DNA from: an uncultured Acidimicrobiia bacterium | GTDB taxonomy: Bacteria > Actinomycetota > Acidimicrobiia > Spongiisociales > ZC4RG35 | Direction: 5' to 3' | DNA length: 64,000 nt | NCBI GenBank assembly: GCA_964195405.1 | Contig: CAXMPK010000119.1 | Span: forward strand, 13,075 to 77,074 | In this document: one piece after another, positions 3,945 to 50,698 of the stretch | How positions within the stretch are numbered: position 1 is the stretch's first letter | How the letters are laid out: every line of letters starts with the position of its first letter | Notes under the pieces: generated by a model | What the model was told of the DNA's origin: nothing | Seen by the model: the letters and a program-made list of their open reading frames with translations, nothing else | Database searches by the model: none | Position numbers and translations under genes: made by a program

Positions 3945-3952
3945 CAGTCACC

Positions 3953-4944: not shown

Positions 4945-4953
4945 TTGGGATCC

Positions 4954-9780: not shown

Positions 9781-9912
9781 TGCGGGGGACGGTAATCCTG
9801 GCCAGGGAAGAAGACCTACCCAGATGGCTGTTTGCTCGAGGGTCGCTGCAGCCATACCTTGATCGGAGCAGTTCCCACCTGTCCTCGGATTATGTTTAGG
9901 TACCTAACGAGC

Positions 9913-21731: not shown

Positions 21732-22541
21732 ATGAGTGATGCTCTCGTCGAAAGCCTGATCCGCAGCGTGGTGGTAGTGGCTATCGCCATAATCGCCTAC
21801 TTTCTATTGGTTCGGGTGGGTAGGCGTCTGGTCGACAACTACGCCGCCAAATCCGGAAAGGAAACCGGCAAAAGAATCGTCACCCTCTGGCGAGTGATGA
21901 GACGGATCGTGCTCGTGATCGTGATCCTCACGGCCATCCTGGTCCTGTTTGGAGTCTGGGGATTCAGCATTGCGCCGTTCTTGGCGGTGGGTACGGTTTT
22001 TGCCGCCGCGGTGGGGTTTGGCGCCCAGGATCTGGTCAAGGATTTCATCGCTGGCTTCTTCATCTTGGTCGAGGACCAATTTGCTATGGGTGACACCGTC
22101 ACAATTGCCGGTGTTACCGGAACTGTCGAGGACATCCAGCTCCGGGTGACGGTGTTACGTGACCTCGAGGGCAATCAGCTGTTTGTCCCCAATGGGCAGG
22201 TCGTTGTCACCACCAACTTCACCAGTGCGTACGCCAAACCGGTGATCGATGTCGGCATCTCATATGAGACGGATGTCGATCGGGCCCTCGCCATTCTCAA
22301 GGACGAGCTCGATGCTCTGGCCTCCGATCCTGCCTGGACCGGTCGCATCTCTGGCGAGTCGGAGATCATGGGTGTCAACGAACTGGGGGATTCGGCTGTT
22401 GTGTTACGAGCCCGTCTTGTCACTGACGCCAATGAGCGTTGGACGGTGAGGCGGGAGGCTCTTCGACGGGTCAAGAATCGATTTGATGCTGAGGGCATTT
22501 CGATCCCGTTCCCCCAGGTCACGGTGCATCGGGCCGACTAG
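21732..22541 (+). CDS. mechanosensitive ion channel (MscS) family protein
   Basis: Three TM helices followed by the MscS beta-domain (GDTVTIAGVTGTVEDIQLRVTVLRDLEGNQLFVPNGQ). Confidence 0.8.
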   Translation: MSDALVESLIRSVVVVAIAIIAYFLLVRVGRRLVDNYAAKSGKETGKRIVTLWRVMRRIVLVIVILTAILVLFGVWGFSIAPFLAVGTVFAAAVGFGAQDLVKDFIAGFFILVEDQFAMGDTVTIAGVTGTVEDIQLRVTVLRDLEGNQLFVPNGQVVVTTNFTSAYAKPVIDVGISYETDVDRALAILKDELDALASDPAWTGRISGESEIMGVNELGDSAVVLRARLVTDANERWTVRREALRRVKNRFDAEGISIPFPQVTVHRAD

Positions 22542-28336: not shown

Positions 28337-29104
28337 TTACGCACAACTATGGAGCGGTCGGTAACGCCAACGGTCGACGACACGCCCGTCACGGTCGAGG
28401 AGCAATGCCATGTCACCGTCGTTGTTCCAGACCGGCGATCCTCCCGGATCCCAGGCGAGGTCGGCACTGCTTATGGTCATGTGGGCTCCCGGTTGAAGAG
28501 CCGACCCGTTAGGGAACCGGTAGCGATGTCGTGACGACTCGTCCCGCACCGTCCATCCCGAGAGGTCAACTTCGGCAGACTCGTTATTGATGATCACAAT
28601 GGTCTCCTTTGAGGGATCCAGAGCGATGATCATGATCTGGGGGATCGGTCCTGACCCACAAGCGTCGCCGGACCAGAGACCGATGTCGTTTTCGAAGGCT
28701 CCCTCTTCTTCAACCAGGTACCCGCTCCCCGAGTCGGGCGTGGTGGCGAGGGCCAGGCCCATCTCGACCAGCTCGACATTGACATTCCGGTCGTCGTCCC
28801 AGACATGGGCCAGAGTTCGGCCGAACTGATCCAGAGTGGCGCCGATATCAAGTCTGACATTGCGGCCTTTCAAGGTGTCGATCAGATGGTCAAGCGACTC
28901 CTTGTAGAAACACTCGTCATTCTCGGGAGCGTTGATGTCGAGAAGCCGGACATCGATGTTTCCCTGATCTAGGTCAACAGCGATGGTGTCACCGTCATAA
29001 ATCCAGGTCACGACACCCAATGAGCCTTTGGGGGTTGTCTGTCCGGGGGTGGCCGTTGGCGTGCACGCTGTCGTCAGGAGCATGACGACAGCGACCACGC
29101 GCAA
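28337..29104 (-). CDS. secreted thermonuclease (SNase-like) with a C-terminal lamin-tail domain, lipoprotein
   Basis: Lipobox LTTAC. SNase motifs IYDGDTI and RLLDINAPE. LTD-like C-terminus GWTVRD...NNDGDMALLLD. Confidence 0.6.
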   Translation of the reverse strand: MRVVAVVMLLTTACTPTATPGQTTPKGSLGVVTWIYDGDTIAVDLDQGNIDVRLLDINAPENDECFYKESLDHLIDTLKGRNVRLDIGATLDQFGRTLAHVWDDDRNVNVELVEMGLALATTPDSGSGYLVEEEGAFENDIGLWSGDACGSGPIPQIMIIALDPSKETIVIINNESAEVDLSGWTVRDESSRHRYRFPNGSALQPGAHMTISSADLAWDPGGSPVWNNDGDMALLLDRDGRVVDRWRYRPLHSCA

Positions 29105-32463: not shown

Positions 32464-33294
32464 GTGGGCATATTCCTAGGGGGCCTAGCCTCCCTCTTCT
32501 GGGGCGTTGGTGACTTTCTGGGCGGAGAGGGGGCAAAGCAGGCGCCGGCGGCGTCTGTAGTTATTTGGGCAGGTGTGTTCTCGTTTCCTGTGGTGACGGT
32601 GGTCGCTTTGGGGATAGGTGGGACCGTGTCGATCGTCGACGTTGGGCTGGGTGTGGCCGCCGGCGCCGGGGGAGCGCTTGGTCTGGTGTTTCTCTTTGCT
32701 GGATTGGGGAAGGGTCAGGCCGCCGCGGTAGCACCGGCTTCGGGGGCATTGACCGGGATCCTTCCCGTCGGAGTTGCGTTGCTGTTGGGGGAAAGACCCT
32801 CTGTGCTCGCCTGGGCCGGCGTCGTTTTGGCAATTCCTGCCATCGTTCTCTGCTCTTGGGTGGCCGAGCCGGGTGACGTGCCGCATGGAGGTCTTTGGTA
32901 CGGCGTGATAGCTGGTTTGGGTTTCGGGAGCTACACAATCCTGATCAGCATGACCAGCGAGACAGCCGAGCTGCTGCCATTGATTCCGGCTCGGGCGGCG
33001 ACGATGGCAGTTGTCGCCCTTGTGGCTGTCTTCGGTGTGTGGAAGGTGGTTGGGTTCGCCAAGGTACCGAAGATGATTGTGATCGGCAGTGGTCTTTTCG
33101 ACGTAGGGGCCAACATGACACTTCTGGCAGGGCTCAGGCTTGGCTCGCTGGCGTTGGTGTCAGTTTCGGCATCGCTATTCCCGGCAGTGACGGTAGTTCT
33201 GGCACGGGTGGTAAACCATGAGCATCTCCGGGCCCGCCAGGTGCTGGGATTGGTGATGGTCCTCGTCGCAATCACGGCTATCGCCCTCGGTTAG
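32464..33294 (+). CDS. DMT family transporter (EamA-like)
   Basis: Ten predicted TM segments with Gly-rich EamA repeats. Confidence 0.65.
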   Translation: MGIFLGGLASLFWGVGDFLGGEGAKQAPAASVVIWAGVFSFPVVTVVALGIGGTVSIVDVGLGVAAGAGGALGLVFLFAGLGKGQAAAVAPASGALTGILPVGVALLLGERPSVLAWAGVVLAIPAIVLCSWVAEPGDVPHGGLWYGVIAGLGFGSYTILISMTSETAELLPLIPARAATMAVVALVAVFGVWKVVGFAKVPKMIVIGSGLFDVGANMTLLAGLRLGSLALVSVSASLFPAVTVVLARVVNHEHLRARQVLGLVMVLVAITAIALG

Positions 33295-33301
33295 CGACCT
33301 T

Positions 33302-33754
33302 CTATGACGTGACGGAAGGGTTGGTCCCGATGACCAGCCACGTCCCGAATATGACCAATGCGATTCCGCCGAGACGTCTGGCGTCGAGAGGGTGAGCGGT
33401 CCCAAAAAGGCCGAAGTTGTCGATCAATGCCCCAATTGCGATCGACGCCCCCGTAAACAATGTGAGACCAGCCCCCAAGCCGAGATTGGAGATGGTTATG
33501 CCCAACGAAGCCACAATCACGAGCCCCATCAGACCCGCAGTGAGAGCCCACCACGGCACCTCACGAAGATCGGAGAGTCGTGCTCCACCGAACGCAAGCA
33601 TCATCAGCGCAATTGCCAGTCCACCACCGCCGTATGTCACAAACGTGGAGACCAGGGTTCCTGCTTTTGCTTCCATGATTCCCACAAAGGAACCCTGGAG
33701 CGCACCGGCCAGGCCGCCGACAACGCCTATTAAGACAACGAGGATCATGCTCAT
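33302..33754 (-). CDS. DMT-superfamily small membrane protein (DUF606-like)
   Basis: 150 aa with four TM helices and Gly-rich segments. Confidence 0.45.
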   Translation of the reverse strand: MSMILVVLIGVVGGLAGALQGSFVGIMEAKAGTLVSTFVTYGGGGLAIALMMLAFGGARLSDLREVPWWALTAGLMGLVIVASLGITISNLGLGAGLTLFTGASIAIGALIDNFGLFGTAHPLDARRLGGIALVIFGTWLVIGTNPSVTS

Positions 33755-34905
33755 GTTCGATCATGGTGGTCGGCCAGCTTCTCGTAGTCGCGGATTGTTC
33801 GGTCGAGATACCGGACCGCGGTGTCGTAACCCTGAAGGGCCTGATTGGTGGTGTAGGCGAGAACCCGCATCAGCCACAGTCGAAACGCCAACGCCTCCCA
33901 TGCCGGGTCGCCCAACCGAAACTCGTTGTGGAGGACAGCCAGGGTCTCGCCCCACGTGGACGCATCCATGAAATCGAAATGGGGTGCCTGGTGATTCCGG
34001 AGAACTTCAACCGCAAGAGGCTCCGGCAAGCTTTCTGCAAGTTTCTGCTCACCGGGTTGCCACGCCGCGTTGAGCAACGTGATGGTTGGGTTGACATCGT
34101 AAGCCACGGTGTTCTTGAGATCATCGGGAACCGGGGCGGGGGGATCGGCGGCAAATTCAGTCTCACCGTTCGGGCTTTCTTTCCCGCGAAGACTGATCAC
34201 CGCATCCAGGCATTCAATTGCCATGGCCCTGATCTCGTCGAGAGTCCCGTAGAGGGCATGACGCTTGCCCTCAGCAACGTTGTGTTCATAAACCGGCAGA
34301 CCGAGTGTTGTGGTGGCGTGGGTGATCATGGTGTCAACACCCCAGTCAGAGCGCGCCTGCACCGAAGAGTCCGAGGCGAGAGCGGCGATCGCCTCCCCGG
34401 TCAAAAGCATCTCGCCACCGAGCGGCTGGCCCAATCGGGGAAGGACAGTGCCGGGAAAGAGCATGGCCAGGGATGGCCTTGTGATCATCCAAGTGATCAT
34501 TGCGTCCGTCGACGCCCGAGGGAACCTATGGCGTACAACGCCATAACCCCGATCTACCGCCGTCTCGGCTCCGTCTATCCAGTTGTCATCGAAGTTGGTG
34601 ATGTCAGCGTCGTAGAAGTGGACCCTGTCGAACCCACGCTCCGCAGCCCGCCGAATCGCGGTGTTCATCCCGTCCCCTTTGCCACTGCGAAAGACTCCGA
34701 TTCTCTCCTGGGCAAAGACCTCGATCGGTGTGGATTCGCCAGTCGCGATCTCACCCGAGATAGATGAGACCTCATTCATCTCAGGTCCGGCGGTGGCGGC
34801 AACCGCCCACACCTCGTCGACGCGACGGTGACGGGCCGCAGTCGTGAGGTTGGCGGCGATGACACTCAAGTCCTCCTGCTTGAAGGGAAAAACGATCAGG
34901 CTCAT
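33751..34905 (-). CDS. GT-A glycosyltransferase, probable mannosylglycerate synthase (GT78-like)
   Basis: MSLIVFPFK, GKGDGMNTA, HFYDADIT (DxD), RHRFPRASTDAMITWMITR, QPLGGE and RSDWGVDT match my recollection of Rhodothermus marinus mannosylglycerate synthase. The start is trimmed to MSLIVF. Confidence 0.5.
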   Translation of the reverse strand: MSLIVFPFKQEDLSVIAANLTTAARHRRVDEVWAVAATAGPEMNEVSSISGEIATGESTPIEVFAQERIGVFRSGKGDGMNTAIRRAAERGFDRVHFYDADITNFDDNWIDGAETAVDRGYGVVRHRFPRASTDAMITWMITRPSLAMLFPGTVLPRLGQPLGGEMLLTGEAIAALASDSSVQARSDWGVDTMITHATTTLGLPVYEHNVAEGKRHALYGTLDEIRAMAIECLDAVISLRGKESPNGETEFAADPPAPVPDDLKNTVAYDVNPTITLLNAAWQPGEQKLAESLPEPLAVEVLRNHQAPHFDFMDASTWGETLAVLHNEFRLGDPAWEALAFRLWLMRVLAYTTNQALQGYDTAVRYLDRTIRDYEKLADHHDRT

Positions 34906-34964
34906 GGAAATGTCCGGGATGGGGGGGCGGAATCTGTCACAACCGGCGTCTACTCTCGTGGCTG

Positions 34965-36641
34965 ATGGAAGAAATGGTCGGAAGGGTCCTCGGGACCAAA
35001 GACGCAACACCGCTCGAGTTTTGGGTTGGTGTGAGTGAAGGCGAGTTCATTCAACTCGACGATGTCGTCGCCCTGGAGCGTGTGTTGCCAACCGGTGAGG
35101 TGGTCAGGATGTACGGGACCGTGGGTCAGGTGATCGCACGTCATGAGGGGGCGCGCTTCGATTCCGATGTCTTTCTGATCGAAGACGGGATCCTCCCCGC
35201 TGAGGTGTCCGAGGCAGCCCAGGTGACCGCCACCAGATTCGAGCCCGAGGTGTTTGTGCCGCCGCGTCCCGGTCAAGCGGTACGCATCGCGGAAGGCGAA
35301 GAGAGGGAGCGTGCCCTTTTCTTCGACCAAATGGATAAGCGGTTCCCGGTTGGGATCACCAGGAACGGCGATCCACTTTGGGTCAACTTCGAGTTCATCA
35401 ACGGTGAGCGAGGGGCTCATGTCAACATTTCTGGCATCTCGGGTGTGGCAACCAAGACGAGCTACGCAACCTTCCTTCTTCATTCCCTTTTCACATCTGG
35501 AGTGCTGGGGACAGCAGTGGTCAACACCAAGGCGCTGATCTTCAACGTCAAGGGTGAGGATTTGCTTCATCTCGACCGGGTCAACACTCGACTAGATGAC
35601 GAACAGCGACGGCGTTATGCCGACTTGGGTTTGCCTTCTACTCCTTTCGAGTCGGTGGGCACATTTGCGCCGCCCCGGATCGATGATCCCAGAGCCACGG
35701 CGGATGTCGCCTCGAGATCGGATGTCACCTCGTTCTTCTGGGGTGTCCATGAGTTCTGTATTGACGACTTGCTGCCCTTCCTATTTGCCGACGCCGAGGA
35801 CGACCGGGCCCAATACACAACGGTGGTCTACAACGTGATGGCCCAATTGCGATTGGCGGAGGCGACTGAGACCGGGGCAGCACACATCGATGGGGTCAAG
35901 GTGCGGACGTTTCGCGAGCTAGCCGATCTCATCACCGAGCGGGTGCAATCTGACGACGGATCGATTCGACACCGCTGGGCCGGCCCGGCGATAGGGATTG
36001 GAACCATCAATGCCTTTGTCCGCCGTCTCCAGGCCTCGGTGAGACATGTGGGACGGCTTGTCCGGTCCGACATCGCCGACGCCGATCGGCATCGAATCGA
36101 TCTCGGCCGCAATCAGGTCACTGTCGTCGACCTCCACAATCTCAACGACCGTGCCAAGCGCTTCGTGGTGGGGATCACCCTGAAACGTGCCTTCGACGAG
36201 AAGGAGCGCGCCGGTCAGTCGGATGAGTTGCTCTTGGTGGTGCTTGACGAACTCAACAAATACGCGCCACGTGAGGGGACGAGCCCGATCAAGGAGGTTC
36301 TTCTCGATGTTGCTGAGCGCGGTCGGTCACTTGGTGTGATTCTGATTGGTGCTCAACAGACCGCATCAGAGGTCGAGCGGCGGATCATCGCCAACTCATC
36401 GATCCGGGTGGTCGGGCGTCTCGATTCGGCAGAGGCTGCTCGCGAGGAATACGGGTTTCTACCGGGGGTCCATCGGCAACGAGCGACCATCGTCAAGCCC
36501 GGCACGATGATCCTCAGTCAGCCCCAACTACCTGTTCCACTTGTGCTCGAATTCCCCTTCCCGGCCTGGGCGACAAGGGCGTCGGAAGCTGTAATCCCGC
36601 CGGACAACACCGGTTCGGAGGATCCTTTCGACGATCTCTAG
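34965..36641 (+). CDS. HerA/FtsK-superfamily ATPase (HerA-like: N-terminal HAS-barrel plus ATPase)
   Basis: The N-terminal beta-rich segment resembles the HAS-barrel of HerA. It is followed by a deviant P-loop GISGVATKTS, Walker B VVLDELNKY, and GAQQ. Confidence 0.5.
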   Translation: MEEMVGRVLGTKDATPLEFWVGVSEGEFIQLDDVVALERVLPTGEVVRMYGTVGQVIARHEGARFDSDVFLIEDGILPAEVSEAAQVTATRFEPEVFVPPRPGQAVRIAEGEERERALFFDQMDKRFPVGITRNGDPLWVNFEFINGERGAHVNISGISGVATKTSYATFLLHSLFTSGVLGTAVVNTKALIFNVKGEDLLHLDRVNTRLDDEQRRRYADLGLPSTPFESVGTFAPPRIDDPRATADVASRSDVTSFFWGVHEFCIDDLLPFLFADAEDDRAQYTTVVYNVMAQLRLAEATETGAAHIDGVKVRTFRELADLITERVQSDDGSIRHRWAGPAIGIGTINAFVRRLQASVRHVGRLVRSDIADADRHRIDLGRNQVTVVDLHNLNDRAKRFVVGITLKRAFDEKERAGQSDELLLVVLDELNKYAPREGTSPIKEVLLDVAERGRSLGVILIGAQQTASEVERRIIANSSIRVVGRLDSAEAAREEYGFLPGVHRQRATIVKPGTMILSQPQLPVPLVLEFPFPAWATRASEAVIPPDNTGSEDPFDDL

Positions 36642-36708
36642 GGCAAGTACCTATGAGAACGGACCGTCTTCCACAAATCTGTCTTACCCACGATTTACGA
36701 TCTGGGCG

Positions 36709-37839
36709 ATGGCAGTGAAGATCCTTCACACATCCGACTGGCATGTCGGCAGGAGAATTCGGGGTAGGGATAGATCCGAGGAGCATCGCGCCGTCCTCGC
36801 CGAGATCGCAGGCCTGGCCCGTGAAAACGATGTCGATCTGACCGTTGTGTCCGGTGACACCTTTGACACGTCTTCACCGACACCGATTGCCGAGCAGATC
36901 GTTTGGAGTGCCCTTCTCGAGCTGGCCGAGGTGGCTCCTGTGGCAGTAGTCGCCGGCAATCATGACAACCAGGCCCGACTCGATGCGGTCGCCCCGCTGC
37001 TCGCTATGGGAGGCATCACGATGGTAGGGGCTGCGAGGGGGCCCGACGATGGTGGAGTGGTGTCCATGGATGCTCTAGGTGTGAAGCTGGCCCTGTTGCC
37101 TTTTGTCTCGCAGCGAGCGATGGTCAAGGTCGAGGAGATCATGGGATCGGATCCCGATCAGCACGCCGGGGTCTACGAGCAACGGCTTCGTCGGATCATT
37201 GATGCACTTACCTCCGGGATGACCTCGGATACGGTCAACATCGTTGTCAGTCATCTCACGGTTTACGGAGGTCTGGTTGGAGGGGGTGAGAGACAGGCCC
37301 ATATCTTTGGATACGCGATACCGGCTTCGATTTTTCCCGGACATCTTTCGTACGTGGCACTTGGTCATTTGCACCGCCAGCAGAAGATGCCCCACTCAGG
37401 TGCCGTCTGGTACTCGGGGTCGCCGCTGCAGCTCGATTTTGGCGAGGTGGCGGACAGCAAAGGTGCCTTGCTCGTCGAGGCCACACCGGGTCTGCCGTCA
37501 AAGGTGACCAGTCTCCCGCTGCAGTCTGGAACCAGGCTGGCGACCGCCAGGGGGACACTCGAAGAGATTCTTGGACGGGCCGACGATCTCGCCGATGCCT
37601 ACGTGAGAGTTGAGCTCACCGAGAAGGCCCGTGTCGGGTTGGCCGATGAGGTGAGAGAAGCCATTCCGGGCGCAGTCGAGGTGCTCCTCGACAATCCGAG
37701 CCCGGCAAAGAAGAAAACTGTGTCTCGACAGAGTCTCCAGCCACTTGAGGCCTTCCACCGCTACCTCGAAGAAAAGGGTGGTGATGACAAGGACGTAGAA
37801 GCCTTGTTTGCCGAGCTACTGGATGAGGCCGTCGCATGA
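36709..37839 (+). CDS. sbcD: DNA repair exonuclease SbcD (Mre11-type)
   Basis: Phosphoesterase motifs ILHTSDWHVG, GDTFD, GNHD and GHLH. Confidence 0.85.
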   Translation: MAVKILHTSDWHVGRRIRGRDRSEEHRAVLAEIAGLARENDVDLTVVSGDTFDTSSPTPIAEQIVWSALLELAEVAPVAVVAGNHDNQARLDAVAPLLAMGGITMVGAARGPDDGGVVSMDALGVKLALLPFVSQRAMVKVEEIMGSDPDQHAGVYEQRLRRIIDALTSGMTSDTVNIVVSHLTVYGGLVGGGERQAHIFGYAIPASIFPGHLSYVALGHLHRQQKMPHSGAVWYSGSPLQLDFGEVADSKGALLVEATPGLPSKVTSLPLQSGTRLATARGTLEEILGRADDLADAYVRVELTEKARVGLADEVREAIPGAVEVLLDNPSPAKKKTVSRQSLQPLEAFHRYLEEKGGDDKDVEALFAELLDEAVA

Positions 37840-37869
37840 AGACAACGTGGCCATCTTTGTGATGGCGTC

Positions 37870-40230
37870 ATGAGACCACTTCGTATCCGAGCCGAAGGTT
37901 TCTCGGCATATCGGACACCGGTAGAAGTCGATCTCGACGGTGTCGACTTCTTCTCGTTGAGCGGAGCAACCGGTTCGGGCAAGTCGAGCCTCATCGATGC
38001 CATGGTCTTTGCCCTTTATGGGCGGGTTCCCCGACTTGGGGGCAGCACCGTCGCTCCCGCGATCAGCGCCGGTGTCGACCGAGCTCGAGTCGCCTTCGAT
38101 TTCGAGATCGACGGTTCCGTGTATACCGCTGTTCGTCTTGTCGAAAGGACCAAGACCGGGGGAGCCAGTGTCAAAGAGGCGAGACTTCAAAAGGGCCAGT
38201 CAGTCTTGGCCGATGGTGCCGACGACGTAACCGTGGCAGTTGAAGGCCTTCTCAAGCTCCGTTTCGAAGACTTCACCAGGACGGTGGTCTTACCGCAGGG
38301 TGACTTCGCCCAGTTTCTCACCGCCACCAAGGCGGAACGCCAGTCGTTGTTGCGAAGTTTGCTGGGACTCGACATGTACACGGCAGTTCGTGGGCTGGCC
38401 AAGACCCGCGCCGCGGTTGCCGGGGATCGCGCTGAGACCGCCCATGCTTCGCTTGAATCTCTGCAAATTCCTGATGATGAATCGGTGGTCTCCGCCGAAC
38501 GGCGGCTGACCGATCTCGAAACTCTGTCCACTGAAATCGTCGAGCGGGAGAAGAGGCTGTCCAGTCTCGACAAGAAGGTGGCGGATACGCGGGCCGAGGT
38601 TGATCGTCTCTCCGACGCGGCAACGCGATTGGAATCAATCTCACCGCCGGACCAACTCGAGAGACTCGACGGTCTTGCCAATGACGCTCGTGACGGTGTC
38701 GCCCTGGCGGAGAAATCCCTGGAGGAGGCGCGTACAGAGGTGCTCTCGCTCGAAACACGCCTCCGCGACCTGACATCACCTGCTCAAATCGCCACACATC
38801 GCATCAGCCATGAGAATCTTGGCGAACTGGAGGAGCGGATGGCCGCCCACAACCTCGAGCTGATCGAAGCCGAAGTGGAGGCTTTATCCGAGGAGTTCGA
38901 TGAAACGGTCGGGCGACTCCAGGAGACCCGGGATTTGCTGGCGTCGGCTCGATTCGCCCATGCTGCCCATGCTCTTGTGTCCACACTTGTTGTCGGCGAG
39001 CCCTGTCCGGTATGTGACCACGAGGTCATCGACATACCGAGCTACTCCACTCCCACCGAATTGGAACAGCTCGAGGCGGATGATGTATCGCATTTGCAGG
39101 CTCGTGAAGCGGCCCGATTGAATCTGGACACTGTGAAGGGTCGCCTCACCAGTGTCCGGGCAACCCTCAGCGAACAGACAGAACAACTAGGTCGACTCCA
39201 AGAAGCTTTGACTGACATTCCAAACATTGAGGAGTTGACTGAGCTCGAGAGCCGGTACGACGAGATTGTCGTGGTCCTCGAGGATCGTCGGGCTGTTCAG
39301 GTGGTCCGCGACGGTGAGCTCGAGACCGCCAGGCAAAGCCTTGATGGCCTCGCTGACGCCGTCCGGCTTGTCGGCAAACAGTTGACCGCAGCTCAATTAG
39401 AAGTTGCCGATTTGAAGCCACCAGTGTCCGATGCGGATGATGTGGTGGTTCGCTGGAAAGACCTGATCAGTTGGCGTGACGAGGCTCGTGCCGCCATCGA
39501 TGCAGAGACTCTGCTCGCGGTGGACTCTGTTGCGTCTGCCAATGACAGGGCGGCCGACGCCAGACATGAGTTGACCTCGACACTCCGCGATGCAGGCGTG
39601 AAGGATGAGGAGCCCCATTCGGCCCAGGTGGCGACTGAGTTGGAGAAGGCCCGCCAGCTTGTTGCTGACTTCAAGAAGACGTTGTCCGCGGTCAACAAGC
39701 TTCAGGTGGAAGTTGAGGAGGCTTCCTCAAAGGCCACCGTGGCCGAAGCTCTCGCCGGCCATCTGCGGGCGAACGGTTTTGAGCGATGGCTGATGGCTGG
39801 CGCACTCAGTGATTTGGTTGGCGGTGCCAACGGGTTACTCGGGGAGTTGTCATCTGGCGGCTATTCCCTCCATTCGGATGACGTCGGTTCGTTCTCCATC
39901 GTCGACCATCGCAATGCCGATGAGTTGAGGTCCGTTTCGACACTTTCCGGCGGAGAGACGTTCTTGGTTTCCTTGGCCCTGGCGTTGTCTCTCGCAGAGA
40001 CTCTGGCGGCTGCCGGCGGTGCACGTCTCGACACCATCATTCTCGACGAAGGCTTTGGAACGCTGGACACCGAGTCGCTGGACACGGTCGCATCTGTGCT
40101 CGAGGAACTCGCCGGCGACGGGCTCATGGTGGGAGTCATCACACACGTCAAGGAGCTGGCAGCGCGGGCGCCGACCCGGTTTGAGGTCACACGAGAGCCG
40201 ACAGGCTCGGTGGTGGAGAAGGTCTCATGA
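37870..40230 (+). CDS. sbcC: DNA repair ATPase SbcC (Rad50-type)
   Basis: Walker A GATGSGKSS, central coiled coil with a CPVC zinc hook, signature LSGGE, Walker B IILDEGFGTLD. Confidence 0.85.
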   Translation: MRPLRIRAEGFSAYRTPVEVDLDGVDFFSLSGATGSGKSSLIDAMVFALYGRVPRLGGSTVAPAISAGVDRARVAFDFEIDGSVYTAVRLVERTKTGGASVKEARLQKGQSVLADGADDVTVAVEGLLKLRFEDFTRTVVLPQGDFAQFLTATKAERQSLLRSLLGLDMYTAVRGLAKTRAAVAGDRAETAHASLESLQIPDDESVVSAERRLTDLETLSTEIVEREKRLSSLDKKVADTRAEVDRLSDAATRLESISPPDQLERLDGLANDARDGVALAEKSLEEARTEVLSLETRLRDLTSPAQIATHRISHENLGELEERMAAHNLELIEAEVEALSEEFDETVGRLQETRDLLASARFAHAAHALVSTLVVGEPCPVCDHEVIDIPSYSTPTELEQLEADDVSHLQAREAARLNLDTVKGRLTSVRATLSEQTEQLGRLQEALTDIPNIEELTELESRYDEIVVVLEDRRAVQVVRDGELETARQSLDGLADAVRLVGKQLTAAQLEVADLKPPVSDADDVVVRWKDLISWRDEARAAIDAETLLAVDSVASANDRAADARHELTSTLRDAGVKDEEPHSAQVATELEKARQLVADFKKTLSAVNKLQVEVEEASSKATVAEALAGHLRANGFERWLMAGALSDLVGGANGLLGELSSGGYSLHSDDVGSFSIVDHRNADELRSVSTLSGGETFLVSLALALSLAETLAAAGGARLDTIILDEGFGTLDTESLDTVASVLEELAGDGLMVGVITHVKELAARAPTRFEVTREPTGSVVEKVS

Positions 40231-41138
40231 AGTACACCGTTGAGGCCTGGGATTCGGACTACGGCGCACCTACAGACCCTGAGCTGGACGATGCCACCCA
40301 GTCAGTGGACGCTTCTGTTGAGGTGCCGGTCGATCAATGGCGGCCTCTGCTCCCTGAGGTCGATCCGGTCGACGACATCCTCTTTGTCGACGGAGTCCGG
40401 CGGGTCGACGCAACCCTGTGGATCGACCAGCCACCCGATTTTCCTGCCTTCGCCCTGGCAGCCACATACGCCGCCGGTGCAGTCCGCTGCAATGGGACGG
40501 CACAGGTCGAGGTAGCGGATGTCGGGAGAGGTCTCTTCACTTCCGCGCCGGCCGACGACATCGAGACGAGTGTTGGCACCTATGAGATCAAGGCCACCAA
40601 AGGAACAACATCCGAGGAGCTCTGGCTTGGTATACAGCAGCGGATGGGCGATCTCGAGGCACACGTAGCGCACAAGGCCGGTGGTGGTGAGCTTCTAGTT
40701 GTCGACGGGCCGCTTTCCCATGCCCGTGATCTCGAAAATGCGGTTGGCTACATCAAGACTCAGAAGGTGCAATATCTACCGCTCGAATTGCGGTCGGTTC
40801 TGACTTCACTGCCGGCTGGATATCGCACGCCACTGTTTTTGACGACCACGTCATGGAGTCGTTATTCGTGGTACTTGCGGCTCGCCAATCATGCGGGTCC
40901 GGCGGGTGGGCTGGTGCGTTGTGAAATCGATGCGAACAAATCGGTCGCCGACGCTGCCAGAGTGGCCACGCGTGTCAGTGCGACGTTGCCCCGTTTTGCA
41001 TCTGCAAGTCACAAGGATCCCCGGGCGCCGCAGAATCTCTATCCGATAGGTGGTCTGGAACGTGAGCTCCGACGACGGCTCGGTGACAAAGAACTGGCGG
41101 TTCGATCGTTGCGGAAGGCTTCAGCGGTCGCGGCGTGA
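40227..41138 (+). CDS. hypothetical protein, candidate NurA-like nuclease
   Basis: The ATG overlaps the sbcC stop as ATGA. An acidic N-terminal segment is followed by FVDGVRR and VVDGPLS motifs consistent with an RNase-H-like NurA fold. The position matches nurA in archaeal herA-mre11-rad50-nurA operons. Confidence 0.35.
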   Translation: MKYTVEAWDSDYGAPTDPELDDATQSVDASVEVPVDQWRPLLPEVDPVDDILFVDGVRRVDATLWIDQPPDFPAFALAATYAAGAVRCNGTAQVEVADVGRGLFTSAPADDIETSVGTYEIKATKGTTSEELWLGIQQRMGDLEAHVAHKAGGGELLVVDGPLSHARDLENAVGYIKTQKVQYLPLELRSVLTSLPAGYRTPLFLTTTSWSRYSWYLRLANHAGPAGGLVRCEIDANKSVADAARVATRVSATLPRFASASHKDPRAPQNLYPIGGLERELRRRLGDKELAVRSLRKASAVAA

Positions 41139-43781: not shown

Positions 43782-44864
43782 ATGAGTCTCTCCATAGGGA
43801 TTGTTGGCTTGCCCAACGTCGGCAAGTCCACCCTCTTCAATGCTCTTACCAATGCTGGAATCGTGGCCGCCAACTACCCGTTTGCGACCATTGATCCAAA
43901 CACCGGCATCGTCCCCATTCCAGATCCACGTCTAGACCGACTGGCAGACCTGTTTGGTTCCGCGAAGAGGACGCCGGCGACAGTGACCTTTGTGGACATC
44001 GCCGGCTTGGTGAAAGGTGCCAGCAATGGGGAGGGGCTTGGCAATCAGTTCCTGGGCAACATCCGTGACGTCAACGCCATCTGTCATGTGGTTAGGGCAT
44101 TTGAGACCGAAAACGTCGTACATGTTGAAGACGGTCTCGATCCAAAACGGGACATTGGGATAGTTGAAACCGAGTTGGCAATCGCAGATCTGGAGACTAT
44201 CGGGAGACGTCTCCCCAGGCTCGAGAAGGAGGCCAAGATCGACCGTGGGCTGCAAAGGCAGGTCGATCTACTCACCGAGCTCCAAGATGTGGTTGCAGCC
44301 GGAGAGCTGGTTGTAAGTCATCTGGGGCTGATGGAACGACATTCCGAGTTTGCAGATCTCCATTTACTGACGGCCAAACCTGTTATCTACGTCTTCAACT
44401 CTGATGAGTGGCTGCTCGCCGACCCGGGCCGACGCCGGGAGCTGGAGCAGATGGTTGCCCCGTCAGAAGCGATATTCCTCGACGCGCAGATCGAGGCCGA
44501 GCTGATCGAGCTCGAGGCTGACGAGCGGGCCGAGATGCTTAGCGCTGTGGGCCAGGGCGAGCCAGGACTGGACGTCGTCATCCGGGCCGCCTACCGGACG
44601 CTGGGGCTACAGAGCTATTTGACCGGTGGAGAAAAGGAGTCCCGGGCCTGGACAATCAGGGCTGGCGCCACTGCACCGGAGGCAGCGGGTGTGATTCACA
44701 CCGATTTCGAGCGTGGGTTTATTGCGGCAGAGGTTGTCGACTTCGACAGGCTGATCGAGTCCGGCTCGTGGGTCGCAGCGCGTGCGGGTGGTCTGGTTCG
44801 GACCGAGGGTCGCGATTATGGGATGAAGCCCAACGATGTCGTCGAGTTTCGATTCAACCTATGA
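43782..44864 (+). CDS. ychF: redox-regulated ribosome-binding ATPase YchF
   Basis: IGIVGLPNVGKSTLFNALT, a TGS domain and a C-terminal region with GFIAAEVV. Confidence 0.9.
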   Translation: MSLSIGIVGLPNVGKSTLFNALTNAGIVAANYPFATIDPNTGIVPIPDPRLDRLADLFGSAKRTPATVTFVDIAGLVKGASNGEGLGNQFLGNIRDVNAICHVVRAFETENVVHVEDGLDPKRDIGIVETELAIADLETIGRRLPRLEKEAKIDRGLQRQVDLLTELQDVVAAGELVVSHLGLMERHSEFADLHLLTAKPVIYVFNSDEWLLADPGRRRELEQMVAPSEAIFLDAQIEAELIELEADERAEMLSAVGQGEPGLDVVIRAAYRTLGLQSYLTGGEKESRAWTIRAGATAPEAAGVIHTDFERGFIAAEVVDFDRLIESGSWVAARAGGLVRTEGRDYGMKPNDVVEFRFNL

Positions 44865-44911
44865 GCTAGACCTCCCGAGACATAGCGGTAACCGCAGTGA
44901 CGATTGGTGCC

Positions 44912-44950
44912 TAAGATGACGACGTCATCGATAAGATGACGTGTCATCGA
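44912..44950. repeat. Tandem direct repeat of two units, each with a palindrome GATGAC(N1-2)GTCATC
   Basis: Seen directly: TAAGATGACGACGTCATCGA and TAAGATGACGTGTCATCGA side by side, immediately 5' of the glycine aptamer. Confidence 0.55.
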
Positions 44951-45088
44951 CACCGTCGGGAGAGCCTCGATAACGAGGCGCCGAAGGGGCAACACCTTCC
45001 CGGAATCTCTCAGGCATGTAGGACCGATCGGTCGAGGCTTCGCTGAAGGAAACGACAGCAGGGAAGGGCAATAGCTTGCTACGGAGAC
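44950..45088 (+). promoter_or_regulatory. glycine riboswitch (single clear aptamer) in the gcvP leader
   Basis: GGGAGAG ... P2 hairpin CCTCGATAACGAGG ... CGCCGAAGGGGCAA ... CTCAGGCA ... GGACCG matches the glycine aptamer consensus. It lies directly upstream of gcvP. Confidence 0.6.
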
Positions 45089-45092
45089 CTCG

Positions 45093-47912
45093 ATGCCCAA
45101 CCCGTTTGAGAAGTTCGCAGACCGCCACATCGGTCCCAGTCATTCGGATATTCAGAAGATGCTTGCCACCGTTGGCGTGGCGTCTTTGGACGACTTGGTT
45201 GCCGGGACAGTTCCGACCTCGATCTTGGATGAGACGCTCGAACTGCCCGAGGCGCTGACGGAAGTAGAGGTAGTTGGACGGCTTACCGAGTTAGCTGAAA
45301 AGAACACTGTCATTACGTCGCTCATAGGTCTCGGATACCACGACACGATCACCCCACCTGTCATCCAGCGCAAAGTGTTGGAGAACCCTGCTTGGTACAC
45401 CGCCTACACCCCTTATCAAGCTGAGATCAGCCAGGGTCGACTTGAGGCCTTGCTCAATTTCCAGACCATGGTCTCGGACCTCACGGGTCTCGACATCGCC
45501 AATTCGTCACTTCTCGATGAGCCGACCGCTGCCGCCGAGGGCATGGCCATGGCTCACCGTCTCCACCGTGGGAAAGAGAGAGTTTTCTACGTCCATCCCG
45601 ATGTCCACACACCAACCAAAGCGGTCCTCACCACCAGAGCCTCGGCTGTTGGGATCGAAGTTCGAGAGCTAGACGACCATGCCGACCCTTCACAAGCATT
45701 TGGCGTGTTACTTCAATACCCAGGGTCATCTGGTGCGATCAGCGACCACAGCTCTGTTATCGACGCCTTCAGTGGTGCAGGCGCTTTCGTCGTGGTGGCC
45801 ACCGATCTGCTCGCCCTCACCATGCTTGAGCCCCCGGGGGAGTGGGGCGCCGACATCGCTGTCGGATCGGCCCAACGTTTTGGGGTGCCGCTTGGCTATG
45901 GAGGGCCCCACGCCGGCTTTATCGCATGTCGGGAGAAGCATGTGCGCGCCCTCCCCGGTCGTCTCGTGGGTGCTGCTGAGGACACCGCGGGGAGGATGAG
46001 CTATCGGCTGGCTCTCCAGACCAGGGAACAGCACATCAGACGGGAGAAGGCGACCTCCAACGTGTGTACGGCCCAAGTCTTGTTGGCGATCATGGCCGGC
46101 TTCTATGCCTGCTGGCATGGACCCCAAGGCCTCAAAGCAATCGCGGGTGAAGTCCATCGACTCACATCAAGTCTCGCGGCAGGGATTGATTCTGCCGGAT
46201 ACAAGATGGTCTCCACCTGGTTCGACACGATCACTGTCAGGACGCCAGGAGCCGCAGATGAGATCGTCGCGCGAGCTCTCGAGGTGGGAGTGAACCTCGG
46301 TCTCGTCGACGATGACCATGTGCGTGTGGCACTTGACGAGAAGTCCGATGACGACTTGGTTGGGGTGGTTCTGGGGGTTTTCGGCGCCTCGATACCGGGT
46401 GAGCAACCTTCAGGAATCCCGGATAGGGCGATTCGCCGGACAGCATTCTTGACACACCCCGTCTTCAGTCTTCATCAGTCCGAAACCGAGATGCTGCGCT
46501 ACCTGCGAAGACTGTCCGACCGCGACCTCGCCCTAGATCGCAGCATGATTCCACTTGGCTCCTGCACGATGAAGCTCAACGCGACTACCGAGATGATCCC
46601 GGTCACATGGCCCGAGTTCGCAGGGATTCACCCCTATGCGCCGGTCAGTCAGGCAGCTGGATATTTGGAGCTGATCGAAGAACTGGGTGAATACCTGGCC
46701 CAAATAACCGGCTACGACACAGTCTCTCTCCAGCCCAACGCCGGATCACAGGGCGAGTTGTCAGGCTTGCTGGCGATCGCCGCGTATCACGAGTCCCGTG
46801 GTGAAGGTCATCGTGACGTTTGTCTCATTCCCGCGTCTGCGCACGGAACCAACGCTGCGTCTGCGGTCATGGCCGGTATGCGTGTTGTGGTTGTTGCGAC
46901 GGACGACCGCGGGAATGTCGATTTCGATGATCTAGAGGCCAAGGCATCGGAGCACGCTGACGCCCTTGCCGCCGCCATGGTCACCTACCCGTCCACGCAC
47001 GGAGTTTTTGAGGAGGGGATCAAGGCACTGACCGAAATGGTGCATTCCCACGGTGGCCAGGTTTATGTCGATGGGGCCAATCTCAACGCTCTCGTAGGAT
47101 TGGCGCGACCAGCCGAGTTCGGCGCTGACATCGGTCACCTCAATCTGCACAAGACGTTCACAATCCCGCATGGGGGAGGTGGTCCAGGTGTCGGCCCAGT
47201 AGGCGCAAAGTCCCATTTGGCGCCATTCTTGCCAAGCCACCCCTTGCTGGCGGCGGCAGGCCCCGATACCGGAATCGGACCAGTTTCCGGTGCGCCTTTT
47301 GGATCGGCCGGGATTCTCCCCATCCCCTATGCGTATATTCGCCTGATGGGCGCCGAAGGGCTGCGTCAGGCAACGAAAGTGGCGATTCTGTCGGCCAACT
47401 ACGTGGCCAGACGGCTCGATCCCTACTTTCCCGTTCTCTATACAGGGGCAGGCGGGCGTGTGGCCCATGAGTGCATCCTCGATTTGCAGCCACTCACCAG
47501 AGACACCGGTATCACTGCCGAAGACGTTGCCAAACGTTTGGCTGATTATGGATTCCACGCCCCGACGCTGTCGTTCCCGGTGGTGGGGACACTCATGGTT
47601 GAACCGACCGAGTCCGAGAGCCGGGCAGAGCTCGACCGTTTCTGTGATGCGATGATCGCGATCCGAGCCGAAGCCGATCGGGTGGGTTCGGGTGAGTGGC
47701 CTCGAGATGACAATCCGCTGTCAAACGCCCCGCATACTTCCGAGGACGTTGTTGCGGATGACTGGGCACGGCCCTATTCGAGAGAACAAGCTGCGTTTCC
47801 TGTCAGGATCCTTCGTTCCGACAAATACTGGCCCCCGGTTGGGCGTATCGACGGTGTGGGTGGGGATCGGAATCTCGTCTGTGCCTGTCCGCCTCTCGAT
47901 GCCTACCGCTGA
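45093..47912 (+). CDS. gcvP: glycine dehydrogenase (decarboxylating), glycine cleavage system P protein
   Basis: 939 aa single-chain P protein, with a PLP-lysine region around HLNLHKTF. Confidence 0.9.
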
Positions 47913-47982
47913 TCAGCTTGACAATTGCTCTTGCAGTGGGATGGTTACTGCCTGATTTCCTAGCGATCTTGAGGGTCAATCG

Positions 47983-49587
47983 GTGAGATTCACCGGTCAA
48001 ATTCGGGTTCCCGATGTAGACCACCCGGGGGTTCCAGTCACCTTCGTTGTCGATGACAACCAGGCGGAGGTGATTCTGGAGGGTGACTCCCTTGGCAGGT
48101 GGTCGCTTTTTGACGTCCATGTGACCCGTCTTGTCTCCAGTGCGTTCCAGGTCGAGTTGGCCGACGAGGAAATCACATTCCTCGCCGACGAGCCCGTTGA
48201 CTTTGCCTACAACGGCGTCGAGCACATGGCTCAGGTATGGGCCCGGTATAAGACAATGACGGTCCCGCGCCGAGTGATTGCCGTCAAACGATCCCGAAAG
48301 GGAACCACACCATCGCGACTCCAGGAATTCCGCGAGGCGATGATCGAGAATCTCAGAGCTGAGGGTGGTGAGAGCTCGAGCCGGGGAGAGCCCTCGATGC
48401 TCCCCGGCGAATCCGTGGCGACAGCGGCGTCTCCATCAACACTAGACCCGCTGCTCGAGCCCGTTACGGAGTCGAACGAAGCCGAAGACGGTGCGGAAGC
48501 AGTCATTCCAATGGTCGCTGGTTCCAATGAGCTCGATCGAGCTTCGGCGAAGACGGAGCTGGAAGCAATCGAAAATGCTGAGGCCCAGCGAGCGAAAGCC
48601 ACGCTCATTGAGACCGAGCGAAGGGCCGAGGCCGATCGAATGGCGTCCGAGCGTGATGCACTCGCGGCTGAGCGTGTCCGCCTCGACGAACAGAAGCGGA
48701 GTCTGGAGGAGGCCCTTGCAGAAGCAGAACACCTAGAGAAGAAGCGTCTCGATGCGGCGCAAGTCGATATGGATCGGATCGAGAGTGAGAAGCGGGAGCT
48801 CGAGAAGCGTCATGAGGAGGAGCGTCTCAAGGCGGAGCAATTGGAAACCGAGCGACAGGCGCTTCAACAGCTTGAGGTCGATCGTGTCGAGCGCGAGCGC
48901 CAACAGGAAAAAGACCTCGCGGCGCGGCATTTGGAGGTCGAAGAGCTCGAAACCAAGAAACGGGCCGAAGCTGAGCGTCTCGAGAAGGAGCGTAAGGAGT
49001 TGGTGCGTCTCGATGCAGAGCGTGAAGAGACCGCTCGCATCGAAATGGAAAAGCTCGAGCTGGAGCGTCTCGAATTGGAGCGTCTCGAAAGTGAGAGGTT
49101 ACAACGCGAGCGGGACGAAGCCGATCGCGTCGAGAAGCAACGTCTCGCTGAAGAGAAGCAACGTCTTGCTGACGAAAAGCGGGAGGCAAAACGTCTGAAG
49201 AAGGAGAAGGAAGCGGCCGCGGCCATCGCGGCGGAGGCTGAAACCGAACCTGAAACCGATGCTGAGGAAGAACCGGGCGGACGTGTCGCTGAAGTGCTCG
49301 GAACGTCAGTTGCCGGCGACCTCCCCGATAATGCCAAGGAGTTGGTGGTCGATCTTGGAGCCTTCGAAGAGGTGGCCCCGATCGAGACACCGCAATCGGG
49401 TACCGACACCGAACCGGCAATGGCCGGAGTGACGGAGAAGGCCGGAATCATGGGTGCAGTCAAGGCTGCCTTCAGTCGCACCGGCAAGAACCATGTTCAC
49501 GAGTTCACAGAGGCCCCCGGTGGCATTGGCATGGTGCGATACATCTGCCGCGAATGTGGCTACGTCTCGATATCCAGCACAGATTGA
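47983..49587 (+). CDS. hypothetical coiled-coil protein: ~110-aa N-terminal globular domain, ~250-aa Glu/Arg/Leu-rich coiled coil, C-terminal HxH...CxxC element
   Basis: Periodic ERLELERLELERLESERLQRERDE-type repeats. C-terminal HVHEF...ICRECGY. No enzymatic motif was recognised. GTG start. Confidence 0.5.
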   Translation: MRFTGQIRVPDVDHPGVPVTFVVDDNQAEVILEGDSLGRWSLFDVHVTRLVSSAFQVELADEEITFLADEPVDFAYNGVEHMAQVWARYKTMTVPRRVIAVKRSRKGTTPSRLQEFREAMIENLRAEGGESSSRGEPSMLPGESVATAASPSTLDPLLEPVTESNEAEDGAEAVIPMVAGSNELDRASAKTELEAIENAEAQRAKATLIETERRAEADRMASERDALAAERVRLDEQKRSLEEALAEAEHLEKKRLDAAQVDMDRIESEKRELEKRHEEERLKAEQLETERQALQQLEVDRVERERQQEKDLAARHLEVEELETKKRAEAERLEKERKELVRLDAEREETARIEMEKLELERLELERLESERLQRERDEADRVEKQRLAEEKQRLADEKREAKRLKKEKEAAAAIAAEAETEPETDAEEEPGGRVAEVLGTSVAGDLPDNAKELVVDLGAFEEVAPIETPQSGTDTEPAMAGVTEKAGIMGAVKAAFSRTGKNHVHEFTEAPGGIGMVRYICRECGYVSISSTD

Positions 49588-49628
49588 GTTACATCGACTC
49601 ATAATCTGCTGCCGGTACCCTCGCCGCA

Positions 49629-50684
49629 ATGCCAATAGTCAGACCAGTCATTCTGTCCGGTGGTTCAGGAACACGTTTGTGGCCTCTCTCCACGCCCAGC
49701 CTTCCCAAACAGTTCGTCCATCTTCTCCCCGGTGGCACCCTCTTCACCCAAACGCTGGAGCGTCTCAGTGGTATAGAAGGCGTGGCACCGCCGGTGATTG
49801 TCACCGGGGCTGATTATGCCGATAGGGCGTCAGCCGCCGCCAAGGACATGGGCATGCCTGCTGAATTCATGATTGTGGAGCCGGCCGGCCGAAACACCGC
49901 ACCGGCGGCTTTGGCCGCGGCCTTTTCGGTTGCAGCTGATGAGATTCTCGTCATCCTTCCGGCCGACCACATCATCGAGGACATCATCGACTTCGGAGGG
50001 ACTGTCGAGTTGGCTGTTGATGAAGCTGAATCGGGATCCATCGTCACTTTTGGGATCACACCAACGGGCCCTGAAACGGGCTTCGGATACATCGAGATGG
50101 GTCGAGAATCGGGTCATGGGTATGTGGTCAACCGTTTCAAGGAAAAACCCGGCCCATCTGAGGCCATAGAACTTGTTGCCGATGGCCATCATATTTGGAA
50201 CTCAGGCATGTTTGTCGTTTCGGCTGGTCTTCTCATTGACGAGGCGCTGATCCACTGTCCGAAATTGGCGGAAGGGGTGCTGGCTTCATTGCAACCGTCG
50301 CAAGGCGGGATGGTGCACCTTGATGAAGGGTTCCGGTCGGTGGAGAGTATTTCACTCGATCACGCGATCATGGAGAAAACCGAGAAGGCGGTGGTTGTGC
50401 CGATTGACGTTGGGTGGAGCGACGTTGGGTCATACCAGACTCTTTGGGAGCTATCAGAAAAGGACAATGCCGGAAACTCGGTGACCGGTGACGTGGTGAT
50501 CCGCGATGTCTCCGGTTCGTTGATCCGGGCATCATCGCGAACGGTGGCCGTAGCCGGGTTGTCCGATGTGGTTGTGATCGAGACCGCAGATGCTGTGTTG
50601 GTTGTGCCCCGGGACCGCTCTCAGGACGTGAAGGATCTGGCAGCCGATGCTGGCGGCGACCGCTCTGCAGCACAATCGTCCTGA
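49629..50684 (+). CDS. mannose-1-phosphate guanylyltransferase (GDP-mannose pyrophosphorylase, no isomerase domain)
   Basis: N-terminal VILSGGSGTRLWPLS nucleotidyltransferase motif and a left-handed beta-helix C-terminus. Confidence 0.85.
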   Translation: MPIVRPVILSGGSGTRLWPLSTPSLPKQFVHLLPGGTLFTQTLERLSGIEGVAPPVIVTGADYADRASAAAKDMGMPAEFMIVEPAGRNTAPAALAAAFSVAADEILVILPADHIIEDIIDFGGTVELAVDEAESGSIVTFGITPTGPETGFGYIEMGRESGHGYVVNRFKEKPGPSEAIELVADGHHIWNSGMFVVSAGLLIDEALIHCPKLAEGVLASLQPSQGGMVHLDEGFRSVESISLDHAIMEKTEKAVVVPIDVGWSDVGSYQTLWELSEKDNAGNSVTGDVVIRDVSGSLIRASSRTVAVAGLSDVVVIETADAVLVVPRDRSQDVKDLAADAGGDRSAAQSS

Positions 50685-50698
50685 GGACGCTGCTCATC

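Follow-up and report, generated by a model that had tools for sequence, protein, structure and literature searches.

A relative of the one-step Rhodothermus mannosylglycerate synthase in an uncultured Acidimicrobiia bacterium

Two groups of enzymes are among the closest described counterparts of the gene presented here, which we call mgs. The two-step enzymes of mannosylglycerate (MG) synthesis and related pathways include mannosyl-3-phosphoglycerate synthase (MPGS), which belongs to family GT55, and Rubrobacter MpgS and mycobacterial GpgS, which belong to GT81. The one-step mannosylglycerate synthase (MGS) of Rhodothermus marinus (PDB 2BO4, 2BO6-8, 2Y4J-M) belongs to GT78, a family that as of 2012 held just two entries in CAZy, plus homologues in early-diverging plants (PMC3342304). 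MG itself is usually associated with (hyper)thermophiles and red algae, where it serves as a solute and its synthesis mostly follows the two-step route (PMC8490865). The mgs gene lies in a 64-kb stretch (64,000 nucleotides, hereafter the window) of contig CAXMPK010000119.1 from assembly GCA_964195405.1, which comes from an uncultured bacterium of class Acidimicrobiia, phylum Actinomycetota. This origin agrees with the actinobacterial context proposed in a preliminary description of the window that had been made from its letters alone.

33751..34905, minus strand: mgs, a 384-residue GT78 mannosylglycerate synthase as assigned from the open reading frame (ORF), homology, Pfam domains, site residues and predicted fold

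Identity of the mgs protein

The gene is present and intact. It runs without interruption from an ATG at 34905 to a TGA at 33753-33751 on the minus strand, a strand that the preliminary description had left unstated. A longer frame of 419 amino acids, opening with GTG at 35010, was not taken as mgs because the R. marinus enzyme and 19 aligned relatives share the Met at 34905, and because the extension would cross both the promoter and the start codon of the divergent gene herA, which are described below. The product has the same length and two-domain architecture as R. marinus MGS, with a GT-A catalytic domain (residues 2-238) and an MGS C-terminal helical domain (residues 264-367). Among the segments that had been quoted earlier as hallmarks of the Rhodothermus enzyme, GKGDGMNTA (75-83), YDADIT (98-103), RHRFPRASTDAMITWMITR (125-143) and QPLGGE (160-165) are all found in the protein, but the N-terminal MSLVVFPFK is the Rhodothermus form and reads MSLIVFPFK here, one residue apart.

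Sequence searches place this protein with the Rhodothermus enzyme. When it was compared by phmmer with all PDB chains, the sole matches were those of R. marinus MGS (2bo4, 2y4j, 2y4k and related entries), with E-values of 2.8e-100 to about 5e-100 across residues 1-375 on both proteins, and a global alignment gave 46% identity across 374 residues. The comparison with PDB 2BO4 that had been proposed as a check of the GT78 assignment therefore produced a match with E of about 1e-100, and the outcome named there as contrary, namely best matches in GT2 or GT81, did not occur. At the level of domains, the protein matches Pfam PF21969 (MGS_GT) with 284.5 bits (E 8e-85) and PF21967 (MGS_C) with 90.8 bits (E 9e-26), in both cases against a cut-off of 27, and no further Pfam family is present in it at E <=0.1. 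NCBIfam holds no equivalog for the MGS family, and its only match to the protein is a sub-threshold one, the GpgS model, which scores 19.7 bits where the cut-off is 262.

For the active site, we took the residue roles from a comparison that summarises the MGS crystal structures (PMC2581804). In R. marinus MGS, Asp102 and His217 are the metal ligands, Lys76, Asp100 and Asp192 form a residue network, Glu11 contacts the ribose hydroxyls, and Gln66 contacts the guanine; Leu163, Trp189, Met229 and Tyr220 line the sugar pocket, while the carboxylate of glycerate is contacted by the main chain of Ile138 and the side chain of Thr139 (PMC2581804). Every residue in this list is kept in the mgs protein and is invariant in 20 Acidimicrobiia homologues. 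A one-residue deletion near position 88, itself a difference from the Rhodothermus enzyme, makes the mgs numbering one lower beyond residue 88. The metal site and network are thus read as D99-A100-D101, H216, K76 and D191, all invariant in the 20 clade members; the GDP-recognition residues Q66 and E11 are likewise kept, as are I137, T138, L162, W188 and M228, which fall within the blocks STDAMITWMITR and QPLGGE. In other words, the two proteins have the same D-A-D/His metal site and the same residues at the positions that contact guanine, ribose, mannose and glycerate.

The predicted fold points in the same direction. An AlphaFold2 model, built with a 20-sequence alignment as input, reached a predicted local distance difference test (pLDDT) score of 91.4 and a predicted template modelling (pTM) score of 0.90. 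In a Foldseek search of the PDB with this model, the top eight structures were MGS chains (including 2y4m, 2bo7 and 2bo4), with template modelling (TM) scores of 0.94-0.96 and root-mean-square deviations of 1.3-1.6 Å over 378 columns. The next structural neighbours were GT55 and GT81 enzymes, with TM scores of about 0.45-0.5 and identities of 14-24%.

The two-step enzymes of GT55 and GT81 resemble mgs in their GT-A fold, their GDP- or other NDP-sugar donor, their glycerate-type acceptor and the class of their final solute, but they act on 3-phosphoglycerate and depend on a phosphatase, and no phosphatase partner adjoins mgs. Membership in GT55 or GT81 was ruled out on this ground together with the 19.7 bits of the GpgS model, the lack of a Pfam GT55 match in the protein and the TM scores of at most 0.5. 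Every computable line of evidence agrees, from the sequence and its domain architecture through the active-site residues to the predicted fold and the rejection of GT55/GT81; we therefore count the gene product as a member of GT78, and the earlier assignment is upheld. The mgs protein is a true and complete relative of the one-step MGS of Rhodothermus, with an activity that is predicted from homology.

Distribution of GT78 in Acidimicrobiia

We scanned GTDB with one genome per species and found an mgs relative in 173 species; all neighbourhood counts given here use the best 80 of these 173. The 80 are uncultured metagenome-assembled genomes (MAGs), most of them assigned to Acidimicrobiia, Acidimicrobiaceae or Actinomycetota by their labels. 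Submitters gave about a dozen of them other names, for example 'Acidobacteriota' or 'Gammaproteobacteria', and most of these show the same syntenic neighbours where visible. The names of the MAGs suggest that the Acidimicrobiia carriers come from soil, sediment and saline lakes. In the nearest GTDB species representative, the MGS is 82% identical to that of the window. The exact protein was found elsewhere in one Logan contig of 3.9 kb only, and its mates in the same 90%-identity cluster, whose representative is 98% identical, come from GCA_964194925.1, an ENA assembly and a JGI metagenome.

Across protein databases, at least 837 clusters at 90% identity hold GT78 relatives, mostly from Acidimicrobiia MAGs, and many of them are already named “mannosylglycerate synthase” (JGI) or “mannosylglycerate synthase domain-containing protein” (NCBI). 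Clustering at 50% identity leaves about a dozen full-length GT78 representatives among 1.84 billion. GT78 is therefore compact in sequence space yet populous within one bacterial class, and its portrayal as a small family known mainly from Rhodothermus and from plants and algae fits the literature and the sequence space but not the genomes, where it is not rare. The Acidimicrobiia clade is large, uncharacterised and already auto-annotated, and its identification is routine for the Pfam, JGI and NCBI pipelines.

In a rough neighbour-joining (NJ) tree, the Acidimicrobiia GT78 proteins form their own clade, whereas the Rhodothermus enzyme pairs with a sequence from the charophyte Closterium. The eukaryotic GT78 proteins (Selaginella, Physcomitrium, charophyte and red algae) belong to the same family as the window protein but group with Rhodothermus in this tree, and they share about 40% identity with the window protein. 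The Closterium protein P0144 has the same site residues where aligned; the alignment has a gap at positions 186-193, which include Trp189 and Asp192. The hosts differ as well, in that the carrier studied here is probably a mesophilic, uncultured member of the Acidimicrobiia rather than a thermophilic member of the Rhodothermota.

By these counts, the single-step GT78 enzyme is no rarity but is conserved on the chromosomes of at least 173 species-level lineages. The Acidimicrobiia are abundant yet almost uncultured, and if the enzyme is active, MG would be a mainstream stress solute of mesophiles. An active enzyme would also open up many MGS variants from non-thermophiles to the biotechnological production of MG, and would provide a bacterial clade to set beside Rhodothermus when the origin of the plant and algal GT78 genes is considered. 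We regard the interest as modest, lying in compatible-solute ecology and in the enzyme resource, and the result as unsurprising to a specialist given the distribution in databases.

Proposed reaction and alternative products

We consider it probable that mgs encodes a GT78 MGS that makes alpha-mannosylglycerate as a compatible solute, and that it is an old, vertically inherited gene of the Acidimicrobiia. As a retaining GT-A enzyme, the protein would move mannose from GDP-mannose straight onto the 2-OH of D-glycerate in one step, without a phosphorylated intermediate, to give 2-O-alpha-mannosylglycerate. The GDP-mannose would be supplied by an unlinked enzyme of ManC type encoded in the same window. 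Upon donor binding, the guanine would be read by Gln66 and the ribose by Glu11, and Mn2+ or Mg2+ would bridge the diphosphate to Asp101, the second Asp of the D-A-D motif, and to His216. The carboxylate of D-glycerate would then dock on Thr138 and on the amide of Ile137, and the 2-OH would attack C1 from the face of the leaving group, with the carbonyl of Leu162 close to the anomeric carbon, in keeping with the retaining front-face mechanism proposed for MGS. Everything beyond the binding of GDP-mannose, including the residue contacts, is carried over from the Rhodothermus structures through residue identity; the donor, acceptor and product proposed for the mgs protein likewise derive from sequence resemblance. 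The product would most likely act inside the cell as a compatible solute that protects against osmotic stress or desiccation, an osmo- or xeroprotective role suggested by what MG does in other organisms.

Several observations weigh against this proposal. An identity of 46% does not fix substrate specificity, and the R. marinus enzyme reportedly also works with GDP-glucose and UDP-sugars on the donor side and with lactate or glycolate on the acceptor side. Donor choice within GT78 may vary, as judged from the pairing of one distant homologue with a GalU-like gene (see below). One residue of the Rhodothermus enzyme, Arg218, is an Ala here, and an Arg precedes the metal-binding His instead, so that KAHR becomes KRHA; Arg218 is, however, not kept in any other GT78 clade and is therefore not a defining residue. 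Neither a glycerate-forming enzyme, nor an MG hydrolase, nor an osmoregulated promoter was found near mgs in the 64-kb window, and our searches of the open-access literature turned up no report of MG in Acidimicrobiia. By Pfam, the 60 annotated ORFs of the window, which comprise essentially each ORF of at least about 140 amino acids, include no MPGS or mannosyl-3-phosphoglycerate phosphatase (MPGP), no glycerate kinase, no glycerate dehydrogenase and no GH63 MG hydrolase. The absence of MPGS and MPGP that the preliminary description had wished to see checked in the genome thus holds for these 64 kb and speaks for the window alone.

The presumed source of the sugar donor was characterised as follows.

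49629..50684, plus strand: mannose-1-phosphate guanylyltransferase of ManC type, without an isomerase domain, 351 amino acids (Pfam PF00483 NTP_transferase and PF22640 ManC_GMP_beta-helix)

This protein scores 333 bits against the guanylyltransferase part of NCBIfam TIGR01479. Its gene lies 15 kb from mgs on the other strand, among housekeeping genes, between gcvP and menC/menD. No GDP-mannose pyrophosphorylase (GMPP) was detected by tblastn within 8 kb of the MGS gene in the 80 related loci, nor does a second or degraded MGS copy stand beside the GMPP of the window, where the only tblastn match to MGS is at 33754-34905. The gene had been described as a “dedicated” GDP-mannose pyrophosphorylase; it is real, but given this distance and these 80 loci its dedication to MGS is unsupported. 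The ManC-type enzyme of the window is the probable supplier of GDP-mannose for MGS.

A functional link between MGS and a ManC-type pyrophosphorylase is nevertheless plausible, because a divergent Acidimicrobiia MGS adjoins the equivalent pyrophosphorylase in the same syntenic region. This second MGS type (41% identical, 397 amino acids) is found at 3760-4953 of locus L087 and at 4781-5974 of locus L088, and it is separated by 22 nucleotides, divergently, from a ManC-type pyrophosphorylase that is 46% identical to that of the window. The surrounding region, ychF-gcvP...GMPP-cytochrome c-menC-menD, is syntenic with window positions 43782-53633, and the arrangement thus indicates two alternative types of mgs locus within the Acidimicrobiia. 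A more distant GT78 homologue (37% identical) is followed 10 nucleotides on by a GalU-like sugar-1-phosphate nucleotidyltransferase (L085 7001-8936, L086 4227-6162), which scores 197 bits against TIGR01099, below the cut-off. This pairing hints that GT78 clades may not all use the same donor sugar or nucleotide, even though Gln66 is kept in the 37%-identical homologue. GT78 genes recurrently pair with sugar-nucleotide supply, and in Acidimicrobiia the partner is a GDP-mannose enzyme.

In the window, a 534-residue ORF at 47983-49587 (plus strand) stands between gcvP and the GDP-mannose pyrophosphorylase and has no Pfam or NCBIfam match. Its long middle part is rich in Glu, Arg, Lys and Leu and resembles a coiled coil, its C-terminal part carries a Cys pair (...YICRECGY...), and the protein weakly resembles a 413-residue protein at the equivalent position of L087.

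These gene pairings bear on whether the same family and mechanism might, through a shifted preference, yield another glycosyl-hydroxyacid, for example glucosylglycerate or mannosyl-lactate. The Acidimicrobiia clade is merely 41-47% identical to the characterised Rhodothermus enzyme, and the 37%-identical homologue of L085 directly precedes its gene of the UTP-glucose-1-phosphate uridylyltransferase type. GT78 enzymes are also said to be promiscuous in vitro, with the Selaginella enzyme reportedly yielding both MG and glucosylglycerate. We nevertheless regard a shifted product as unlikely for the window protein. It keeps Gln66, which reads the guanine, along with every residue of the sugar pocket and of glycerate binding, and the gene-neighbour evidence in Acidimicrobiia favours a ManC-type GDP-mannose enzyme, such as the window also encodes.

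Another alternative concerns the fate of MG rather than its chemistry. MG could be made mainly as a primer or building block of a larger glycoconjugate, in the manner of glucosylglycerate in the methylglucose lipopolysaccharide of mycobacteria. The glucosyl-3-phosphoglycerate synthase offers an actinobacterial precedent for such a role (PMC2581804), and mgs sits in a housekeeping region without an obvious osmoregulatory partner. No glycosyltransferase, methyltransferase or acyltransferase, however, adjoins mgs, either in the window or in any of the 80 syntenic loci, and we know of no polymer that is primed by MG; taken together, these points make a primer role very unlikely.

Finally, a recent horizontal import from a Rhodothermus-like or eukaryotic donor, which would make mgs an oddity of one genome and could draw on the patchy spread of GT78 over Rhodothermus, some plants and algae and the Acidimicrobiia clade (PMC3342304), is most improbable and was rejected: GC content stays close to 0.59 throughout the window without a compositional anomaly, no tRNA or mobile-element genes lie close to mgs, the gene holds the same chromosomal position in 72 of 80 species-level relatives (MGS 51-82% identical), and the NJ tree sets the Acidimicrobiia apart from Rhodothermus and Closterium. 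A much older transfer, received by the ancestor of the Acidimicrobiia clade, is possible.

Chromosomal setting of mgs

The genomic setting of mgs in the window differs from that of R. marinus MGS, in that the gene is divergent from herA and overlaps a YdcZ gene. Its wider neighbourhood in the window consists of ordinary genes of the chromosome, among them gatB, pyk, glutamine synthetase, two Atg22-like transporters of the major facilitator superfamily (MFS), a sorbosone-dehydrogenase-like protein, a HIT protein, EamA transporters, herA-mre11-rad50-nurA, gpsA, ychF, gcvP, menC/menD and menF-like genes; the 64 kb contain no tRNAs. Within the flanks examined, the neighbours recur among the 80 loci as follows.

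herA, immediately divergent from mgs: 72 of 80 loci
mre11: 66 of 80 loci
HIT gene: 63 of 80 loci
Dehydrogenase gene (GSDH-like): 60 of 80 loci
EamA gene: 56 of 80 loci
rad50: 55 of 80 loci
nurA: 50 of 80 loci

Such deep synteny argues for vertical inheritance of mgs, and for the same reason gene adjacency within the Acidimicrobiia says little about function. The gene that follows mgs on the same strand encodes a membrane protein.

33302..33754, minus strand: membrane protein of the drug/metabolite transporter (DMT) superfamily, YdcZ family, 150 amino acids (Pfam PF04657 DMT_YdcZ, E 2.5e-19)

The ATG of this gene overlaps the TGA stop of mgs as ATGA, which can be seen in cgaacATGAgcatg, and near-identical contigs show the two genes arranged in this way as well. 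The overlap suggests that mgs and the YdcZ gene are probably co-transcribed and translationally coupled. Across 76 related loci, YdcZ lies directly downstream of mgs (gap of at most 30 nucleotides) in 19, nine of which have the same 4-nucleotide overlap; it is parted from mgs by one or more other genes in 30, most by about 1.24 kb, and is absent from the flank examined in 27. In locus L018, the gene in between encodes a 386-residue MFS transporter on the opposite strand (9119-10279, minus), so the two-gene operon of the window is broken there; about 25 further loci share the spacing of approximately 1.24 kb. A role of YdcZ as universal partner of mgs was therefore rejected, as it is directly adjacent in only the 19 loci and absent beside the distant MGS clades.

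On the other side of mgs, the start codons of mgs and herA are separated by a short spacer with a putative promoter.

34906..34964, no strand assigned: divergent spacer between the start codons of mgs and herA, 59 nucleotides
34935..34956, plus strand: TGTCACAACCGGCGTCTACTCT, putative promoter of herA-mre11-rad50-nurA of PafBC/RecA-NDp type, from its TGTC-N12-TANNNT geometry and conservation

Each of the two transcription units must have its signals within these 59 nucleotides, and in most of the 72 related loci the spacer is 36-60 nucleotides long with a conserved core. A scan for sigma-70 promoters and terminators, which covered positions 33200-35100, found no match to the sigma-70 consensus in the spacer. 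The TGTC-N12-TANNNT pattern is present in 61 of the 72 related spacers, and in 50 of these 61 its -10 element ends 7-8 nucleotides upstream of the herA ATG; in the window, the distance is 8 nucleotides. A -10 element so close to the ATG would imply a leaderless or near-leaderless herA mRNA. Over both strands of the whole window, the generic pattern has two matches, while for two stricter patterns, which include the conserved GTCTA core, the site at 34935 is the single match.

The published PafBC motif is tGTCgg(N10)tA(N3)T (PMC8635444; for the PafBC/RecA-NDp promoter see also PMC6789036). The herA box shares the 22-nucleotide bipartite geometry of the mycobacterial promoters but differs in positions 5-6, which are mostly C/A-C and not g-g, and in that it precedes an archaeal-type herA-mre11-rad50-nurA operon in Acidimicrobiia. 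As read from the sequence, the box implies a DNA-damage-inducible, leaderless herA-mre11-rad50-nurA transcript. No regulator with a WYL domain turned up among the annotated genes of the window, where no search aimed at PafBC was made.

With respect to mgs, the box lies 26-27 nucleotides from the start codon in the commonest arrangement, and as near as 6 nucleotides in eight loci. A TANNNT element is found 4-10 nucleotides upstream of the mgs start in 42 of 72 spacers (71 related loci and the window), which suggests that the mgs mRNAs of those loci may be leaderless; the window and its nearest relatives have no TANNNT at this distance from the mgs ATG. A divergent control region of 36-60 nucleotides is shared by mgs and the herA operon in about 90% of species. 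It is conceivable that MG synthesis is wired to a DNA-damage or desiccation response, with mgs and the herA operon co-regulated and, in the subclade of the window, YdcZ moving MG or a glycerate precursor across the membrane. We judge this scenario distinctly unlikely, and any influence of PafBC occupancy on mgs is pure speculation; if the wiring were true, the solute and the repair machinery would form one module for survival of desiccation and radiation.

Some further features of these loci were observed. The mgs-herA spacer of locus L062 is 128 nucleotides long and contains four tandem copies of a unit of roughly 22 nucleotides, CAGTGACACTTCCCRCCCAACCAC, each of which includes GTGACA, one half of the conserved box; the putative regulator-binding element is expanded in this locus. 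The archaeal-type operon for double-strand-break resection, herA-mre11(sbcD)-rad50(sbcC)-nurA, occupies positions 34965-41138 of the window on the plus strand. Its HerA (558 amino acids) has no Pfam match at E 0.001 and its NurA a weak one, although the two proteins show 77-96% conservation among the loci most closely related to that of the window. The window also encodes a Na+/H+ exchanger (14764-16017, plus strand) and a mechanosensitive channel of MscS type (21732-22541, plus strand), which are not linked to mgs and are consistent with an organism that handles osmotic shifts. Finally, a 255-residue protein with staphylococcal-nuclease and lamin-tail domains is encoded at 28337-29104 on the minus strand and occurs at the same position in 33 of the 80 loci.

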